A DNA stretch of 64,000 bases from Trichodelitschia bisporula (Eukaryota). Below are positions 28,511 to 57,654 of this stretch, piece after piece. The notes below the pieces were generated by a model, which had not been told where the DNA came from, did no database searches, and was given only the letters and a program-made list of their open reading frames with translations. Where the stretch lies: contig ML996700.1 of NCBI GenBank assembly GCA_010356995.1, positions 124,001 through 188,000 on the forward strand, written 5' to 3'. Each line of letters starts with the position of its first letter. Within the stretch, counting starts at the first letter, position 1. Position numbers and translations under genes: made by a program.

Positions 28511-29970
28511 TCAAGCCTCTGTGTCTCCATCCGCGTCTCCATCTGCATCTGCCTCAGCGGCCAGGGGGTCCAGCTTCGACACCCACGAGTTGGTCAAACC
28601 CTTGACCGTCTCGTCCGGGTCCGAGATGGTAACCTCCATGAAATCAATCTTACTCTCGTCCCCTTCCCTCTGCTGTGAGCCGCCCATCATTGTATTGGCG
28701 ACCTTGGGGCGAGCGGGACGGATCGTGGTGCGCTGGACAATCGGGTAGATGTACGCCGCCTTCTGCAGCGGCTTCGTGCGCAGGTTCTCCTCCGTCGCCG
28801 GCGCGCCGTCACACATCACCAGCGCCACGCTCTCGTTCCAGCAGTCGTCTGGATCACCGACCTGTTGCGACGTCTCATACTTGCGTAGATGATTGTAGCG
28901 AAAGCTTTGCTTGCCAGTGTCCGGGTTGATGTAGTCGTAGCCGTCCTCATAGTCTCCGTCATTTGGCGCGCCCGGCGTGCCGAACTTGCGCTTAATGGTG
29001 CCCACGGCGTCGCTGCTAGGCAGGTACGCATCGAAGTTGGTCTCCGGACACGGCTTCATCAGCTTCGGGTCTGCCTTGGCGGCGGCAAGTTGCTGCGCGT
29101 ACTTGGTGGCTTGCTCTTGGGTGCGCTCCAAGGGACGCAGGACAGCAACGTCGATACGCGGATCGTAGATCTTGCTGCTGCCGGGGTTGTTGCCAAACCG
29201 GATCACCATATAGTGGCCAACATCTGGAAAGGCCTCGAGATCAGGCAGGATAGGGTAAGCGTCCAGGACTTCCAGCCCCGGGCGCGAGGGGTGCTTCGGC
29301 CGGGCCCACGCGTCCTTCTCTTCATACTGGATCTCTGCGCCGCGGATGCCCTCCTCCGAGTCCTGGCCCGTATAAGCGTCATGGGGATAGGCGACGTTGA
29401 ATCCCTTAGTGATGTTGCGCAGAATAGAGAGCGGATCGTCACGTTGTTCAACCCGGCGGCGTTTGCGCTGCGTGTCGCTGCCACTGCCATTCATCCGCAA
29501 TATGTTGCTGGTGGGCGCGGACCGGGAACTCGCCGCCGAAGTGATGTACTCTGTCCGCCGGAGGAAGCTGACGTTGGCATTCGTAGACAAAGGTTTCCCG
29601 AGGGTGCTGAGTGGGCGCACGAGAGCCCTGTCTTTGGGATCGAGGGGTCCGGATGTTTCCAAGATTGCTATGGCCTGCTTAGCACGCGAATATTGAATCC
29701 GTAAATGCACTTACCAGACTCGTTTCCGTCGAAAACGCCCGGGAGACCGACCAGGTCAATCGGCATGCCCATCTCCGAGTTTGCGACAATGGTGAGCGGC
29801 TGCTCGCGCGCAAGGCGTGATGCATAGCCTGCTGATGTGTACAGTCCGCCTGCAAGCCCGAGACTTGGTATGTCGAGTGTTTTAGGTGGGAGGGCAGGGG
29901 GAGGCACGGCGTTTGAATACCGGACGCGCGCTATGTAGTCCTGATGGACCGGTTTCTGAGCGGACGCCAT
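28511..29970 (-). CDS. PAF1: RNA polymerase II-associated factor Paf1
   Basis: HQDYIARVRYSNAVPPP, MGMPIDLVG, LDPKDRALV, VSFLRRTEYI, KHPS; intron 29668-29714. Confidence 0.9.
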
Positions 29971-40054: not shown

Positions 40055-41473
40055 GATTGAGGGATGTCGAAGAGCGGGCGTTTCTGGCGCGGGCTTGGCT
40101 AAGCCTGGGATGATTGCATTTCCAGCGGTCTTGGGCGCTAAATTCCCAAGAGGTGGTAGTGAGAGGGCCCGCTTGGGCGAAGGCTCAGGGCTGGGAGACG
40201 GCGCGACGCTGATGACTTGATCGGAAGTGAAGGCTCTGATGCGTCTAAGGGGGAAAGGGCGCTGGTCGCTTGGACGCTCCCCTGAGGGCTGTCCATAAAA
40301 GATCTATGATACCCATTATGAGATGGTGGTCCCTCTGGAACACGACAGATTCTCATCGAGGCCTGTATTGCTGGGGCGACGGTTAATAGTTAGCGCCTTG
40401 ACCAAATATGGGCATCACATCTTCAAGATTGGCGATATGCCAACTTATCAAACCAAGCAAGTTATAGAGTACGAGCTCTACTTTCAGCAGTAGATTTGTT
40501 GATGCCCCCAAACATCCGTTCGAGCACTTTGACGTGCATTTTTAGGGGAAGTGTGGAAGAGCCAGGTTGAAATGATCGTGTTCCTTGCTGTGAAGTCGCC
40601 TTAGCCAATTAGCAAGCAGCATCACGCCCGCCCTTGCGCGGCCGACGCGCCAAGGCTGACGCTTATCCAGACGACATACGACAAACCATCTCGCAGCGTT
40701 TGACAGATTCACCCTACGTTGTATAATGGAAGAGGACGCGTTAAAGTCCGCTTGTATGAGGAGATACTCGACTCAATGAGGGCTATGATGCCTTTTCAAA
40801 GTTGGCTCGTGAGCAACGACAGTCAGCGGAGATGTTGGGGCAATGATGCTTCATCCCATCATTGAACCGGTCGTGACGATGACGGTGTTTCCCTTTCCTT
40901 AAGTCAGCGCATAAGTCACTGCTAACTCTGCGATGATACTTTAGAGGAGGTTTTTTCTTTTAGCGATGCCTTTAAGCTTTTTGGAGCCATGGCACCGAAG
41001 CTAAGAAGAGTCGTGAGTTGCAAAGGATGTCGATCGTCGAACAAGCGGCCCGGGATATGATGGACACACGGAAGTGGACGGCATGAGACAGAAACAAAAT
41101 GCACGCAGTTGGTGAAGAAGTTGAGACGTGAGAAGCAAAAGAGAGGAGGAGGAGATGTGGGTAGAGAGGAAAAGAAGATGGCAGAAAAGGTTAGACGAGG
41201 TGAAGTGAAGTGAAGCATCAAACAATCGGCAGGACCCATCGCAACTTCCCCTTCAACCCCCCGTCACTGGCAGGCGCCTGGATCAACGCGACACCACAAC
41301 CATCCACCTTGGCACTTTGGTATAATCCTCTACTTGTTGACTACCCCGCTTTGCACCAACTCTTGACAATAGGAAGCTCTCCCCGCTCTCTGCTTCTCCC
41401 TCTCCGTTAACCACTCCTGCTCTCCCTTTTGTTCACCACCTCATTATTCCTTACTGCCCCTTACCTATTTACA

Positions 41474-43812
41474 ATGACGAGGCCTCCAGAACAAACCAAG
41501 TTCAATGCCCTGCGTGCAAAATGGGATCACAATCAACGCCGAGACAGCAATGCTCCCCCGCTAGCTTCAATGCATGCATTAGGCGATACAAAAAGTGAAG
41601 GCCATGGCGACACCGAGAGACATTCACCCCACGACAACCGGAAGAGGACACCAAGTCGACTGCACCGCTTTGGCTCCTTCTCTCTGTTTAGCGGTGCTCT
41701 CAACTCCCTCAAACCGAAGCTCCTCAGCCGCAGCCACAAACCCGAGAGCAAGCCATCGTCGACCTCGGCGTCGACAACAGCACAGAGCGACTCGAGCAAG
41801 ACCACTACGGCGAGTCTCAGGTCTTCACCGCAGTCGACTCCTTTAACCATGCCGTCTGCGCCTGCGCCTGCGCCTGCGGCCGCCTCGATCACGGTCTACT
41901 CTGCGAGAACTCCTTACGAATCTATGGGCCCGCCGCCCCCAAAGCTGCCACGGAACAATTCAACCAGCTTTCTTCCCGTCCCTGTCAAATCGGCGAGTAC
42001 AACGTCTCTAATCCCCCCGCCGAGCGTGAGAACTTTCCCGCAGTCTAAATCCACGAATCTCTTGCCGCGTTTGAAATCGTCGACTATAGCGCCTCCACCG
42101 CCCCCGGAAGAAGCGCGCCTGGTGCGCCCTTTGAGGGTCTCGCTTCCGCCTCAGAGTGGCGCTTCCCTCCAAGCATCTTTGAACCAGGCGCCGCGGCAGT
42201 CTTCGCGGCATCCTTCTCGACAGCCGTCCCTGCAACCGCAGCAGACTCCCCGGAAGCCATCCCAACGGTCTTTGCAGCCGTCCTTCAGACAGTCTTCCCA
42301 GCGGTTTGGCCAGCAGACTCCAAGACATCACTCTCAGCGGTTGGCTCAGCAGCCTCCCCGTGAGCCATCTCAGGGAGTTGGACAACAGCTTCCGAGACAG
42401 TCATCGCAACAATTTCCGCAGCAGCCTTTAGAGCCGCCCTCCCAACAGTTTCCCAGACAGCTGCCCCTGCAGCAGTCTCAGCAGCAGTTCAAGAGGACGT
42501 CTAAACCGCTACCCCAACAGCGGGCTCCGAATAGAAGTCGGATACCGACACCTGTAGGCACCGCGCGGGCCTATGCTTCTGCGCTCAAACAGGATGATCC
42601 GAATGCTCCGCCAATGCCCCGTCCCCTCCCAACTATTCCCCGATCCAAGACGGAACCGAATCTCATTAGCGCCACCTCTCGTAAGCCCCCGGTCCCGAAC
42701 CGCTCACACATTCCACCGGCTCTCCACTCGGAAAGTTCCCTCTTGGGGACAAAGTTGGAGGACGATGATGGTAGCATCAGCCCTAAGACTCTTAGCAAGC
42801 GGCTATCCGACTACACCTGCGCCGATGTTGTACAGAATAAGCGCCAGGAGATGGACTCGAGCCCGACTATGAGTTTGTCGGGGAATCAAAAAGGTAAATA
42901 TTTCATTGGTCAAGAGCATTTCGTTACCAAGAGGAGCCAACCGCCAGGTCACGTCTCTCCCAGAGCAAAGGCGCTGGAGTCAAGGGTCAAGCAACCTCCT
43001 ATAGCCGCAAGGCCTTCGCGTGGAGAACCGAGCGCAAGACACCAGCGCTTTTCTTCTTCTCATGATATCACTCATCACAAACTCCTGGCGCCTATTCAGC
43101 CTACAAGCCCTCCAGCCTCTGACTTACGGACATATATAGCTCCCCAGGATTTCGTGCCCCCCCGCCGGCACGAGTCGCTCCCACACATTAGCAGCGCGCA
43201 TGCGACCGAGGAGGACGAGCTCCCTCCTTTCCTACACTTTCTCGATGCCGATAGCAGTCCGCCAACGCGCGCCACCGACATTGATCGCTCTCCAGCGCTG
43301 CATGACACCGAACCTGAACTTGAACTCCCGCCGCCACCCCCCGTAAGTTGTGGTACCTCCATCATTCAACTATACTGATATCACAGATCGAAACCGAGCA
43401 GCCCACGGCCTACTGGGCCGGCCGCTTCACGTCCATGCGCGACAATATGCTCAACAGCACCTTCGACATGGAAAATCGCCCGCGCGATATAGGAGACCTG
43501 AACCGGCGCATTCCGGGCTTGACCAACTACGAGCAGGGCATCAAGGACGTGTTTGACCGGCTGGAGGGCCTGTGCATTACACCGCCCGCACACCGCAGCC
43601 TGTGTATGTTCCGAAATTCCTACGCGCGGAAGAATGGGATGCGCTTCCTCGAGCGCCCGCTTCCGCCTCTGCCGCGCAGTCCGGGTGATCGGCCGAGTCA
43701 GTCGTCTGAGGAGCAGCCGGTGCAGCGGGAGCGGCGGTTCTCACTGCTTGGGCGTATGGCGAGGAAGGGGCGGAAGGTGAGTGGGGACGAGCAGCGAGAG
43801 ATGCAGGCTTAG
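41474..43812 (+). CDS. Hypothetical low-complexity protein with small C-terminal domain
   Basis: Long S/P/Q-rich exon, intron 43343-43386 (GTAAGT..CTGAT..CAG), terminal exon QPTAYWAGRFTSMRD...VFDRLEGLCIT..A.RSL..F. Confidence 0.7.
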
Positions 43813-44000
43813 TAGATGTGTTGGGTGCTTGGTGTTCGGGCGTCCTTTCTCCGGCTGATTTGTGGCGTGAGGTTGGAGCATATGTGTACATCTGAACGGT
43901 TACCCTAGATATCGATACACCTGCACTGGAGTGGCGCGCATTAGGCATTGAAGTTGATGAGATCTGCAAAATCTGAGCGATTTGTTGCTATGTAATCTTC

Positions 44001-47000
44001 CTATTCCACTGCCACCCACTCCTCGTCCGAGTCGGCGAACATGTCTACAGCCCTCGGCCTCTGCCGTCTGCCTTCGCCGGGCTTGTTCATGAATGAGAAG
44101 CCACCTCCCATAGCTACCGGCCTAATATCTTTTGTTTCAACCGCTGGCGAGGCCCCTGTCGCAGGAGGAGCTTTCGTCTTATCGCCTGTAGGAACGCCTG
44201 CAGGAGTTCCAGCTTCCACGTCCATCGGTTCACCATCAACGTCGTCCAACGGCTCGCCGTCCACATCCTCGTTCATGGGCTCGCCATCGATGTCATCGGC
44301 AATCGGCTCGCCATCGACGTCTTCCCCAATCGGCACCCCGTCAACATCCTCAATTGCCTCGCCATCCACATCCTCCTCAACGGGAACCGTCTGCGCCTCC
44401 ACCGCCTTCCATTTACTCTTCGCCGCCCTGAGCGCCTCAAGCTCTTTTTCCTTGTGCTGTTGCCTAATCCTTTCCCGTAGCGTAGGCGGGGGATTGGTGA
44501 ACCCAGTGACAAACTGCTTGTGCACATCGCCGTCGAACACGCAAGACGTCTCCCAGAACTCGAGTAAGTTGAGCACTTGCGCCTTCCAGCGGTCGGCCTT
44601 CATCTTGCCCCACCCCATCTCCTTGGCTACTCGGCCGAGCCGCTCGAATACGCGGCGGGACTTGAGGCCCCTTTCGAAAAGCTGCCGGTAGCGCCAAGCG
44701 CGGGTTACGCCGGAGCTACTGCTTGCCGCGAGGAGGTCTGAGATGATGTACAGGCCTATGATTTTAGCGGCGACCATGTCTTCACGCTGCTTCTCCTCGA
44801 GGGTCTGCAGCGCCTTTCCCGAGCCGGCGTCCCACAGCCTGACCGTCCTGTCCCNNNNNNNNNNNNNNNNNNNNNNNNNNNNNNNNNNNNNNNNNNNNNN
44901 NNNNNNNNNNNNNNNNNNNNNNNNNNNNNNNNNNNNNNNNNNNNNNNNNNNNNNNNNNNNNNNNNNNNNNNNNNNNNNNNNNNNNNNNNNNNNNNNNNNN
45001 NNNNNNNNNNNNNNNNNNNNNNNNNNNNNNNNNNNNNNNNNNNNNNNNNNNNNNNNNNNNNNNNNNNNNNNNNNNNNNNNNNNNNNNNNNNNNNNNNNNN
45101 NNNNNNNNNNNNNNNNNNNNNNNNNNNNNNNNNNNNNNNNNNNNNNNNNNNNNNNNNNNNNNNNNNNNNNNNNNNNNNNNNNNNNNNNNNNNNNNNNNNN
45201 NNNNNNNNNNNNNNNNNNNNNNNNNNNNNNNNNNNNNNNNNNNNNNNNNNNNNNNNNNNNNNNNNNNNNNNNNNNNNNNNNNNNNNNNNNNNNNNNNNNN
45301 NNNNNNNNNNNNNNNNNNNNNNNNNNNNNNNNNNNNNNNNNNNNNNNNNNNNNNNNNNNNNNNNNNNNNNNNNNNNNNNNNNNNNNNNNNNNNNNNNNNN
45401 NNNNNNNNNNNNNNNNNNNNNNNNNNNNNNNNNNNNNNNNNNNNNNNNNNNNNNNNNNNNNNNNNNNNNNNNNNNNNNNNNNNNNNNNNNNNNNNNNNNN
45501 NNNNNNNNNNNNNNNNNNNNNNNNNNNNNNNNNNNNNNNNNNNNNNNNNNNNNNNNNNNNNNNNNNNNNNNNNNNNNNNNNNNNNNNNNNNNNNCGATGC
45601 CGACGCCAGCTGCTTGCCGTCCGGCGAGAAGGCCACGACCAAGACCGAGTGCGAATGGCCCTCGAGCGTATGCAGCAAGGCATCCCAGTTGCCCCTAACC
45701 TGCGGTAGTCCGGGCATCCACAAAGGCATCTGGCTTTGAAACCGCCTTTTTACAAGGCTTGCTGTCTGGTCATCTTCTTCCACTTGGTTGTCCTGATTTG
45801 AATCTGAGGCCCTCTTCCAGTATCTCTCTGGGTTCGCGCTGGTGAGACAAAATGGCTTCTCCAGGTTCGATATCAACATCTGGACAACCTCTTCTGCACC
45901 CCGTTCCGCATGTTCGATGGCAAAAACAGACACTCGCGCTACATCGCCTTTGCGCAATCGGCCTTTACTCTTTGGTAAGCGGCCAAGCAGAAACGTGAGC
46001 TCGGCCCGTTGCAACGGCGTCAGATACTGCGGCGCCTTCGAGTCTCTTTCAGTCCCTGGTCGCAGTTCATCATCCGAATCTTCATCCTCCGCTGAGTCAT
46101 AGTCTGTGTGGTCGATAATGTTTTCAAAGTCTGGTATGATCTCGAAAGTTAGCGGCTTTTCGGGTGTCTCCCAAAGCGTGGTATTTTCGAAAAGCTCCGT
46201 GATATTTTGGTTCGGTCTGGCTCGTCCAATGCTTGCAGCGCCCGTACGGATCTCCCACAAACGCCAGCGGTACCACACAGCTCCTGGACTGCGTGGGTTC
46301 CAAAACCACGCCCACTTTTCGTCAGTCTGAATATCCCGGCGCTTCTTAAGCAGACTTTCGAATTCGGGCCCGAATTTCAACACAGATTCCACGGTCTGAT
46401 TAATGAGTTTGAGTTGAGTGAGGTCCGCCGGGGGAGTGACCGCAACCCTTATAGTGCCACCTTGACGGTTGTACTGCCCACCACCGCTACCGTAGGAAGG
46501 AGGAGGGAAGCCACGTCCGTAGGGAGGCGGGGGCCGATTCAGAGGGCCACCTGGACCATTGTTTACCGTCCTTGCTCCAAATGGTAGTGACGACGAAGAG
46601 GACGAAAGAGCTGAAGCAGAAAGCCCTCCGAGTGCGGCTGACGAGAGATGTCGAGACAGTGAGAGGTAGTAGCCATAGCCTAGGTAGCGGTCTTGTAGTG
46701 CATTAACAGCAGCGTCAATCTCGCTTGCAGGGGTGTCTTTTGCTAGAGTCACGATGGCAGCGCTTGAGCGCCGCTCAGACGAACCCGGATTCGCAGGAGG
46801 CAGAAATCGTACTCCTTCAACAGTCAAGTTCGCTGGTATTAGGTTCCGGACAGTCGCCTGTGAAGTGCCCGGCGGTAACGATGTGAGATGCATTGTCGGC
46901 TTAGGTGCCGCGCGCTCGGCAGCATTATCCGATCCCATGTTTTCATCCTCGTCGTCCGAAACCTGAAAAACGGCCTTTGCGTCCAGAGGCGCAGCATCCT

Positions 47001-47400
47001 CGAATCCCAGGCCCGCACCCTTCTGGCTCCGAGGTGCGAACGACCCATCTATAGCCCTTTTTCTTGACAAAGAAGGCGGCGGTGGTTGCGCAGGCCCAGG
47101 GCCAGCGCGAGGACCGATGGGCGCAAATCCACGCTTCGGACCACCCGGCGGCGCAAAGTCCCCACCAGTCCTCATACCGGGCCTGTCAAATCCGCTGCCA
47201 TCTCCTCTACCGTCCGAGTATCCGCCCTCGCCTTCGAAGGACTTGACGAAGCTCTCGAGCGCGGCGGCGGTCTCGGCCTCTTCGCGCTGGCGTTTGGCTT
47301 CCGCCTCGGCTTTCTGTCGCTCGAAAAGGGATTTCTTCGTCGGTGCATTGAGTTTTGTCGAGATGTCCGGGAACTCCTTCACTTTGTGATCGTCCGGCAT
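44001..47400 (-). CDS. U2 snRNP-associated SURP/RRM/CID protein (SR140/U2SURP-like), interrupted by a WD40 module and an assembly gap
   Basis: KKSLFERQKAEAEAKR, RRM-like region, SURP (LINQTVESVLKFGPEFESLL..WYRWRLW), CID start (GDVARVSVFAIEHA..GAEEVV) and CID continuation (KIIGLYIISDLL..AWRYRQLFE..MGWGKMKADRWK..LLEFWE), DVDGEP repeats. Confidence 0.85.
44796..45765 (-). repeat. HET-E/HNWD-type NLR WD40 repeat module (mostly hidden in the gap)
   Basis: Left contig end encodes TASLVKRRF...NWDALLHTLEGHSHSVLVVAFSPDGKQLASAS; right end encodes DRTVRLWDAGSGKALQTLE. Together with one missing residue these form an exact 42-aa HET-E-like repeat. Confidence 0.85.
44855..45594. other. Assembly gap (740 N)
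   Basis: Run of N read directly. Confidence 1.
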
Positions 47401-47600
47401 GGTGATCGGTGGATGGTAGCTGGTTTCTGGTAGTAAGGTGTCGAGGGTTCGTCGGGGGAATGCTTGGCGTGGCGACAGAGCCCCTGCTGCTCTGGTCCAG
47501 CCCTACGGTACACGGACCAAATGATACACTTTGGTATGGAAAGTAGAGCTGGATGACGACGTCCTTTTCATCTACTGTACTACGGAGGTATTATTGTCAA

Positions 47601-55908: not shown

Positions 55909-56364
55909 TTGTGTGGGTGGTCACTCATGGTGGAGGCGCTGATGACAATTACGAGGAGAACGGCGCTTGCCTGGTCTCCGCTTTTACCTTGTCACATAGA
56001 CTCGATGCCATGGTTGAATGGGATATGAACTAGTGATGGGAACCGTATGCTCTCCAAATGTGATTTGTGTGACTTTGGCGATGAATGGCTGGAAATTGAA
56101 GAACTGGTTGATTCGTTTTCTAAGCTCGTTGCATTATGGGTAATACGCTTCAACTCTTCGATAAGGCAAGCAACGCCGCTCATCCTGATGTAATGGTTTT
56201 CTCGTGGTTGGCTGATGCCATGTTGGGTAAAGCTGGTCGCCAAGTCTCTGTCAATTGAGCAGGCGGGAATGACGACATGACAATCGCGCCGAGCCATCTT
56301 TAGGCAATCGAAATATCAGACAACACACATCTTTTTATCGATCCAGAGTATTGATTTCACTTCA

Positions 56365-57654
56365 ATGCCCATGGAAGCCGCAGGCACCGCTAGCGTGCTC
56401 CTCCTTGATCTGTCCACTTCTGCACTTGGGGGGATAGATCTCCTGTCATTCACGACAACACCACGGTTCAAGGGCATCAGAAACGTACCACCGGGCTGGC
56501 ATTTTGTCTTCACAAGCACCACAAGCTCGGTTTCTGTACGTCACGGTGCATGGTTCTTCGTCAAAGAGAAATCTGGGCCGCCAGAGCTCTTCGTCAAAAG
56601 ATGGGATGCTTCCAAAGAAGAACTTGTTGCGGAAACGGACATCGGGGAGCAGCTTCGCTGGAGAAAAACCCTCGGTTCCATATGGAGAGAGAATCTGGCC
56701 CCTTATCGTCAGACTACTGGGAAAGATGCTTCAGAGGCAGAAGCCGAAACCCGTGACTGGCAACACCTAACCAACTGCATCAGCGAAAAGTTGTTATCAC
56801 GAATCACCGGCCCCTCAGACAACCATTGGAGTTTAACGTCCGCCAGCTCAGCTGCACGCGATATGGATGTTATCCCCGGACTCCCGCCAAACATCAGTGA
56901 GATTCAGCGCGAAAAGGAGCTGAATTTCCTGCCCATCGATCTGAAGCGCACTTGGAGACACGGAGCCATCGGTCGCGAGCGCACAGAAGCCGCTTTGGAC
57001 CATTCTTGGGCGCTAGACGATCTGGTCAAGCATCACAGCGACGGGGGTGGGGAGACTCATATTCTGGGCGAACTACAATTCTGCTTTCTTATGGTGCTGA
57101 CCCTCAGCAACTACTCCTGTTTGGAGCAATGGAAGCGGCTTCTCGAGCTCATCTTCACCAGCAAGGCAGCGGTTAAGGAACACGCAGACTTCTTTGTCCA
57201 GGCCGTTACGCTACTAAAGCTGCAGCTGCAACACAGCGGTGATGTGGACGGCGGGCTCTTCGACCTCAGCGATGAGGGAGCTTCGTTTCTCAAGTCATTA
57301 CTTCGGAAGTTCAAACAAAGCTTAAACGACATTTCTGGAAAAGGAAAGAGCGAAGTCATGGATGAATTGGAGGAGTTGGAGGGCTATCTGCGGTCTGAAT
57401 ACCGCTGGGAGCTGGACAACAGCTTCGTAAAACGAGGCCTGGTTGAACTTGAAGACGGAGAAAAGGTTGAGCTCGAGGTTGCAGGTTTTGACGAAGAAGA
57501 TGAAACTGGAGAATATGCTCCGACTGTTGTCAATCTGACACCAGAACAGCTTTCAGCCCTGTCGATGAGTGATTCCACTGGTCGCGGTGCCGCTGAGGTC
57601 GCTGCCGATTCGGAAGAAGATCAAGATCTGGATGACATGGATACTAGGTATTAG
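56365..57654 (+). CDS. AAR2: U5 snRNP assembly factor Aar2
   Basis: GIDLLSF..FKGIRNVPPGWHFVF, RHGAWF, LDHSWAL, ILGELQFCF..L.NYSCLEQWKRLL. Confidence 0.85.
   Translation: MPMEAAGTASVLLLDLSTSALGGIDLLSFTTTPRFKGIRNVPPGWHFVFTSTTSSVSVRHGAWFFVKEKSGPPELFVKRWDASKEELVAETDIGEQLRWRKTLGSIWRENLAPYRQTTGKDASEAEAETRDWQHLTNCISEKLLSRITGPSDNHWSLTSASSAARDMDVIPGLPPNISEIQREKELNFLPIDLKRTWRHGAIGRERTEAALDHSWALDDLVKHHSDGGGETHILGELQFCFLMVLTLSNYSCLEQWKRLLELIFTSKAAVKEHADFFVQAVTLLKLQLQHSGDVDGGLFDLSDEGASFLKSLLRKFKQSLNDISGKGKSEVMDELEELEGYLRSEYRWELDNSFVKRGLVELEDGEKVELEVAGFDEEDETGEYAPTVVNLTPEQLSALSMSDSTGRGAAEVAADSEEDQDLDDMDTRY

Follow-up and report, generated by a model that had tools for sequence, protein, structure and literature searches.

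NLR-derived WD40 repeats inserted, apparently in frame, in the U2SURP/SR140 gene of Trichodelitschia bisporula

Introduction

WD40 repeats of high mutual similarity are, to our knowledge, exchanged only within and between fungal genes of the NOD-like receptor (NLR) type. In plants, NLRs with integrated decoy domains demonstrate that a module of an immune receptor can recombine with an unrelated host protein in one open reading frame (ORF). In yeast, ectopic DNA captured at repaired double-strand breaks lacks a target-site duplication and terminal repeats, and its junctions have little homology or none. U2SURP (SR140) is a conserved factor associated with the spliceosome and with the C-terminal domain (CTD) of RNA polymerase II. 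Here, an orthologue of the U2SURP gene is described whose CID region is interrupted by a fragment related to NACHT-WD40 NLRs. It lies in a stretch of 64,000 nucleotides of the Trichodelitschia bisporula genome (GenBank assembly GCA_010356995.1, contig ML996700.1, positions 124,001 to 188,000 of the forward strand), called the window below and used for the numbering of all positions.

The closest described system is that of the highly conserved (HIC) repeats of fungal NACHT-WD40 NLRs (Podospora nwd/HNWD), which have the same 42-residue, 126-nt units, the same linker and the same repeat consensus as the insert. Sections of two papers describe HIC WD40 repeats as being shuffled and exchanged within and between NLR paralogues (PMC4986451, PMC12222747). 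The present case differs in the recipient, which is a conserved splicing-factor gene without previous WD40 repeats rather than an NLR paralogue. Because repeat exchange depends on homology, which is absent in U2SURP, homologous exchange cannot explain the event. Compared with the integrated decoys of plants, the direction would be reversed: a sensor module appears to have entered a housekeeping protein, with no signalling part brought along. The likeness to break capture in yeast lies in the lack of a duplication and of terminal repeats and in a single shared base, and the mechanism proposed here is argued from absent transposon features. Human U2SURP (PDB 9r8v chain SR) has Surp and the CID helices in the same order and, like the T. 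bisporula protein, acidic D-x-DG-x-P repeats after the CID, whereas no U2SURP among the homologues listed has a domain in the loop concerned. In the parts of the literature covered by the search, no case of an NLR WD40 cassette in a non-NLR gene was described. The locus extends the known mobility of NLR repeats to a recipient outside the family, which is moderately surprising.

The interrupted reading frame

The U2SURP/SR140 gene lies on the minus strand, with its ATG at 47400 and its stop codon at 44001-44003. Translation, Pfam and homologues assign to its 5' part (45766..47400, minus strand) the N-terminal region, an RRM-like region, Surp and the first three CID helices. This part consists of 545 codons without a stop. 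After its last residues, ...NQVEEDDQ, the ORF passes at 45765 into TASLVKRRFQSQMPLWMPGLPQVRGNWDALLHTLEGHSHSVLVVAFSPDGKQLASAS and stays open down to base 45595. The visible 5' end of the insert (45595..45765, minus strand), whose translation is in frame with the upstream host sequence, is composed of the linker that connects the NOD to the WD40 repeats in NLRs (TASLVKRRFQSQMPLWMPGLPQVRGNWDALLHTLE) and of the first 22 residues of a WD40 unit. It is followed by a run of 740 N (44855..45594), the sole gap within the window. On the far side of the gap, another frame encodes the final 19 residues of a WD40 unit (DRTVRLWDAGSGKALQTLE; 44796..44854, minus strand), passes directly into EKQREDMVAAKIIGLYIISDLL... 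at 44795 and continues to the stop, so that the 3' end of the insert is in frame with the downstream host sequence. The 3' part of the gene (44001..44795, minus strand) comprises the remaining CID helices, starting with EKQREDMVAAKIIGLYIISDLL..., a coiled region and acidic DVDGEP repeats, and its 265 open codons are conserved in an alignment to 11 orthologues. The junctions read CAG/ACAGCA at the 5' end and CTCGAG/GAGAAG at the 3' end. An earlier, sequence-only reading of the window had described an SR140-like ORF open into the insert and a frame leading after the gap into the rest of the CID, and both translations were confirmed.

The two partial repeat pieces, 66 nt between GH and the gap and 59 nt on its other side, add up to 125 nt; one nucleotide more gives the 126-nt unit. 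A gap of 126n+1 nt therefore keeps a single ORF, and the same arithmetic in the sequence-only reading was correct. The length of 126 nt is that of the units in HIC-type WD40 arrays, which are defined by this length together with an identity of at least about 85% among the units of one array; it was the length that was compared here. In contigs assembled from independent reads, described below, paralogues bridge the edges of the gap (44854 to 45595) with one base, C or A, and in one contig 22 letters link 45637 back to 44795 and so complete the unit, which fits a length of about 126 nt. The hidden gap presumably holds further 126-nt WD40 units. Of the possible repeat numbers, seven (n=6, 987 nt) is simply the one that comes closest to the gap estimate of the scaffolder. 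Bases 45595-45692 are known only from the assembly, in which they may be a mixture with paralogue sequence.

The chance that sense orientation and the phases of both junctions fit one ORF is 1/18 (1/2 x 1/3 x 1/3). This prior is suggestive of a survival filter, by which frame-preserving insertions into an important gene persist.

Junctions in independent sequencing data

Contigs were assembled independently by de Bruijn graph (k=31) from four public runs, X1-X4, which represent two samples and two studies, and were aligned to positions 44300-46300. The 5' junction (45765/45766) is crossed without a mismatch by a 20295-nt contig of X1 (depth 447), which extends to 45693, 73 nt into the insert; the host contigs of X2 and X3 extend to 45724 (42 nt into the insert) and 45742 (24 nt), respectively. 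The 3' junction is crossed, again with 0 mismatches, by contigs of X2, X3 and X4, which start in the host and reach 44824, a point 29 nt inside the insert. The junction-crossing contigs have the single-copy depth of the flanks, and the repeat part has a summed depth of 1e5 to 7e5, distributed over hundreds of paralogue contigs. These paralogue contigs part from the window right behind 45764/45766, where they read ...ALVFSP, and before 44795, where they read LEG/H..., and their points of divergence fix the borders of homology. Each 31-mer of a contig occurs in the reads, so the mixed host/insert 31-mers prove that both junctions were present in the libraries of two samples. The insertion is, with near certainty, real in the genome.

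An error of assembly or scaffolding, with contig ends falsely extended into NLR repeats and the true U2SURP gene uninterrupted, is extremely improbable on these data. Such an error would account for the gap at the site and for the lack of locus-specific sequence in the independent contigs deeper in the insert (beyond 45693 and 44824), and repeats of this type are prone to misassembly from short reads, as stated in a section of PMC12222747. It is contradicted by the mixed 31-mers, which were found at both junctions in three to four runs of two samples at single-copy depth, and by the order, orientation and frame of the NLR sequence carried by both gene halves, all of which are correct. Furthermore, the joint from 44795 to 45766 that corresponds to an empty site is absent among the joints listed, which are 15 out of 35. 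The sequence-only reading had considered a single mis-join less likely because foreign sequence was present on both contig ends, and the contigs of three to four runs bear it out.

Origin of the insert

A 57-residue peptide of the insert matches NACHT-WD40 proteins at E values as low as 6e-37 (88% identity, 98% coverage), a resemblance beyond chance. At the protein level the two visible ends have 82-94% identity to the linker and the 42-residue repeats of T. bisporula NLRs. When it was searched against longer proteins, 128 of 192 candidates matched at E<=1e-5. Among the 120 of these 128 matches that were listed, the whole-peptide matches of high identity (72-94%) are eight NLR models of T. bisporula itself; the remaining ones concern mainly the WD part. 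The eight models read ...YCSALVFSP/TASLVKRRFQSQMPLWMPGLPQVRDNWDALLHTLEGHS... and continue with 42-residue units. Their linkers differ from that of the insert at 1 of 35 positions in P0182, at 2 of 31 in both P0234 and P0236, and at 3, 4, 6 and 7 of 35 in P0181, P0153, P0197 and P0186, respectively; the value of 30 of 35 in P0170 comes from a model without part of the linker. A composite unit of the insert shares 33-36 of 41 positions with each of five intact paralogue units, and only 13-21 with four further truncated or broken "units" in the paralogue models. The derivation of the insert from the linker and WD40 repeats of an NLR, as proposed by the sequence-only reading, is thus borne out by the linker of P0182 and by the intact units.

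According to Pfam, P0182 contains PNP_UDP_1, NPHP3_N/NACHT and WD40 domains and P0236 contains PNP_UDP_1 and NPHP3_N/NACHT. Since both carry PNP_UDP_1 together with NPHP3_N/NACHT, the source family is of the PNP_UDP-NACHT-WD40 type, which a section of PMC4986451 counts among the common fungal NLR architectures. The label HET-E/HNWD given by the sequence-only reading holds for the type of repeat and fails for the relatives, the closest paralogues having an N-terminal PNP_UDP domain instead of HET.

The insert starts four codons into the linker, directly after the NLR motif ALVFSP (ALVFSP/TASL), and its end coincides with the boundary of a unit (..LQTLE, ahead of the following GH). The Pfam WD40 model matches it with E 2e-4 and 22.2 bits, under the cut-off of 27 because only a partial unit is visible. 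No NACHT domain was matched by Pfam in either translated half, the insert starting past the NOD, and the N-terminal effector domain (PNP_UDP in P0182 and P0236) was likewise not found at the locus, in agreement with the earlier statement that neither is visible. The C-terminal tail (...GSDPPRFRIIREWV...VLCIEFIC), which follows the repeats in complete paralogues, is lacking in the insert. Judged from its sequence, the insert is a fragment derived from this NLR family and not an NLR. When the two insert ends were compared with the window by blastn and tblastn, they matched only themselves, giving no donor copy there.

Of the eight closest NLR models (P0153, P0170, P0181, P0182, P0186, P0197, P0234 and P0236), five are marked partial. 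Aberrant repeat units are found in P0153, P0170 and P0182. Three complete models have truncated or fused units, and in one model a repeat is continued by sequence of another kind. With the closest models broken in their repeats, the repeat numbers of that annotated T. bisporula assembly are untrustworthy.

The host protein and the insertion site

The host protein has 1357 homologues at E<=1e-20 out of 8000 scored candidates, and the best one among the matches listed has 57% identity over 86% of the query. The best 120 of the 1357 are 720-925 residues long, and Surp is the sole precomputed Pfam domain in each. Source names include "U2-associated protein SR140" and "U2 snRNP-associated SURP domain-containing protein", and a UniRef label is "CID domain-containing protein". 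Residues 330-384 of the T. bisporula protein match the Surp module (PF01805) with E 1.5e-11 and 44.6 bits, the cut-off being 21.1. Pfam RRM gave no match in the host at E<=0.01 and none in the closest orthologue, P0003, or in another orthologue, P0006; in the model of P0003, a strand-helix-strand-strand-helix-strand unit is found at 176-258, N-terminal to Surp. The Pfam CID model likewise matched neither the host halves nor P0003 nor P0006. The P0003 model has a confident all-helical domain at 479-693, C-terminal to Surp, and P0006 matches human U2SURP (PDB 9r8v chain SR) with E 2.4e-12, including the Surp region. In the CID, residues 472-531 and 578-661 of P0006 align with residues 527-580 and 587-666 of human U2SURP, that is, on both sides of the insertion point. 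The placement of the insert inside the CID of a U2SURP orthologue by the sequence-only reading is supported by this alignment.

In an alignment of 11 orthologues the insert sits in an acidic stretch of variable length between the conserved ...PF..S.ANPDR segment and the helix KEKEDPSSSKLIALYLISDILS. The loop at this site has about 6 residues in human U2SURP and 20-45 in fungal orthologues, and it is not alignable to the closest orthologue (57% identity). The AlphaFold2 model of P0003, made from an alignment of 37 sequences, has a mean per-residue confidence (pLDDT) of 56 and a predicted TM-score (pTM) of 0.40, values that are low because much of the protein is disordered. Helices 519-531 and 571-590 of the model have a block pLDDT of about 85-91. 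In the segment that separates them, residues 539-544 and 548-565 have values below 50, and it is there, after residue 553 and before residue 554, that the insert is placed. The variable length among orthologues, the low pLDDT and the short human loop together suggest that the site tolerates changes in length; in the model it is a surface loop that is probably disordered.

The C-terminus of the protein (44150-44400, minus strand) contains tandem acidic motifs similar to D-V-D-G-E-P (EDVDGEAIEDVDGVPIGEDVDGEPIADDIDGEPMNEDVDGEPLDDVDGEPMDVE), and human U2SURP has a like motif after its CID.

Transcription and splicing

Two of the runs, X2 and X4, are tagged as possible RNA, which is a guess without a record behind it. 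The host contigs of X4 cover 43965-44824 and 45764-47445; they end 36 nt past the stop codon and 45 nt before the ATG and have depths of 84.5 and 88.1 on the two halves of the gene. The host contigs of the DNA runs are 8.7 to 20 kb long. The contigs of X2 and X4 are RNA-like, so the edges of the insert are probably carried in the transcript. If X2 and X4 are RNA runs, they place the insert edges in RNA, with about equal representation of the two gene halves.

A removal of the insert, wholly or for the most part, from the mRNA by splicing would leave a mature protein close to normal U2SURP. The sites could lie in the hidden middle, and joining a weak GTAAAA at 45753 to a CAG that ends at 44805 would preserve the frame. 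Against this, the visible 5' part of the insert has no GTRNGH donor and its junctions are not GT..AG; the probable RNA contigs continue unbranched past the candidate sites (X2 to 45724, X2 and X4 to 44824), and the corresponding sequences are coding in the NLR paralogues. We regard splicing of this kind as improbable. The insert as a spliceosomal intron was rejected, its junctions not being GT..AG and both being crossed by probable RNA contigs.

Mechanism of the insertion

The structure of the insert suggests the following course. An internal fragment of a PNP_UDP-NACHT-WD40 paralogue, which starts four codons inside the linker, takes in several WD40 units of 126 nt that closely resemble one another and stops at a unit boundary, would have been inserted in sense orientation into the U2SURP/SR140 coding sequence. 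Since no target-site duplication, terminal repeats or transposase were found, capture of an ectopic NLR fragment during the repair of a double-strand break, or a template switch, is the most probable origin, rather than transposition. If the hidden units are intact, the product would be a U2SURP protein with a WD40 beta-propeller nested in the loop of its CID.

The flanks share direct matches of up to 6 nt, a length reached or exceeded in 104 of 300 shuffles, and the longest stretches common to the insert ends, 7 nt direct and 5 nt inverted, are no better than in shuffled sequences. The absence of a target-site duplication and of terminal repeats reported before is upheld by these values. A transposase domain was not found at the locus by Pfam. 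The microhomology that the sequence-only reading had seen at the 3' junction (CTCGAGG/GAGAAG) shrinks to one shared base, a single G. The break is at 44795/44794 plus or minus that base, and one base is ambiguous at each junction. The insertion of a transposable element was rejected, the locus having no target-site duplication, no terminal repeats and no transposase.

Fate of the interrupted gene

The preferred reading is that of a lineage-specific insertion in which the insert is translated in frame as a nested propeller. We consider it probable, with room left for substantial doubt. We think that the propeller would be a passenger tolerated in a length-tolerant loop and not an evolved sensor.

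Several points weigh against this reading. The middle of the insert, with its frame, unit number and possible stop codons, is hidden behind the 740 N, and sections of PMC12222747 describe one Podospora NLR allele with two stop codons in a repeat and call short-read assemblies unreliable in HIC-type arrays. The 5' host contig of X4 ends at 45764, 2 nt into the insert, as against 24-73 nt in the other runs, and an 8729-nt contig of X1 ends at 44761, 34 nt before the 3' junction. The RNA status of X2 and X4 comes from a guess and from the ends of contigs, and contigs show neither levels nor internal splicing. A minor empty-site or spliced form is possible, the joints listed being 15 of 35. Finally, all runs possibly come from the strain of the assembly; they exclude an artefact and are not informative on other isolates.

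The contig ends at 45764 (X4) and 44761 (X1) fit neither an empty-site allele nor a GT donor.

The hidden middle also bears on the most serious alternative, in which the insertion breaks the gene. By this account a frameshift, a stop codon or a degenerate unit truncates U2SURP after the RRM, Surp and the first CID helices, the downstream half of the CID is untranslated, and the locus is either a pseudogene of recent origin or a truncated allele whose loss of function the fungus tolerates. Arrays of this type are mutation-prone and can hold stops, as a section of PMC12222747 indicates; the paralogue models are damaged too, five of the eight being partial and P0153, P0170 and P0182 having aberrant units; and neither an annotated protein for the locus nor a second close U2SURP copy is present among the host homologue and longer-homologue matches listed. 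The orientation and the two visible junction phases, which would fit a single ORF by chance in one case out of 18, argue for an unbroken gene, as do the downstream host codons, 265 of which are still open and conserved. In addition, the depth of the probable RNA contigs is the same on the 3' and the 5' half, a weak measure. A broken gene is unlikely in our judgement, with a chance that is by no means small.

An adaptive fusion, in which a hypervariable propeller provides U2SURP with a new surface for binding ligands and might make it a sensor or a bait at the transcription-splicing machinery, finds circumstantial support in the frame kept at both junctions, in the occurrence of the insert in probable RNA contigs and in a loop that should allow independent folding. 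It is very improbable. WD40 repeats are absent from the best 120 of the 1357 U2SURP orthologues, which have Surp only, and from six longer homologues, all of which are merged with neighbouring genes. A 202-residue query across the junction gave 35578 matches at E<=0.001 among 1.84 billion representatives; the best 150 all have their strongest stretch within query residues 147-202, the insert part, and none pairs the host part with the WD part, although the list is saturated by multi-repeat WD40 proteins and is weak evidence on other fusions. Neither age nor conservation nor selection has left a sign, and the insert is without the C-terminal tail of full NLR paralogues. We likewise give little credence to the proposal that an intact, translated propeller has been retained and gives U2SURP a new recognition surface or the role of a bait akin to the paralogous NLRs. 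If true, a retained and functional propeller would be a live example of NLR sensor modules seeding architectures outside the NLR family.

The locus shows that a linker-plus-repeat cassette can land in sense orientation, in frame at both visible ends, in an unrelated and deeply conserved gene and be apparently transcribed. With an open reading frame in the hidden part, the locus would be a natural domain-insertion experiment, with a propeller nested in the CID loop of a splicing factor, and an early stage of a new architecture; with a closed one, it would be collateral damage from a recombination-prone family of immune genes. Either way, gaps in short-read fungal assemblies may hide NLR repeat arrays in unexpected genes.

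Neighbouring genes

The neighbours of the U2SURP gene encode DUF3433, Paf1, Trm1, GMC oxidoreductase, metallophosphoesterase and AAR2 proteins, and no NLR or transposon is found nearby. AAR2 (56281-57654, plus strand, with both Pfam domains) and Paf1 (28511-29710, minus strand) are ordinary single-copy housekeeping genes in which no foreign insertions were seen. The convergent neighbour (41411-43812, plus strand) is a long low-complexity ORF rich in Pro, Ser and Gln, without a Pfam domain; it has an apparent short intron near 43344-43386, and its stop codon is about 190 nt from that of U2SURP. A contig of X2 (43182-44824) spans the 3' ends of both convergent genes.

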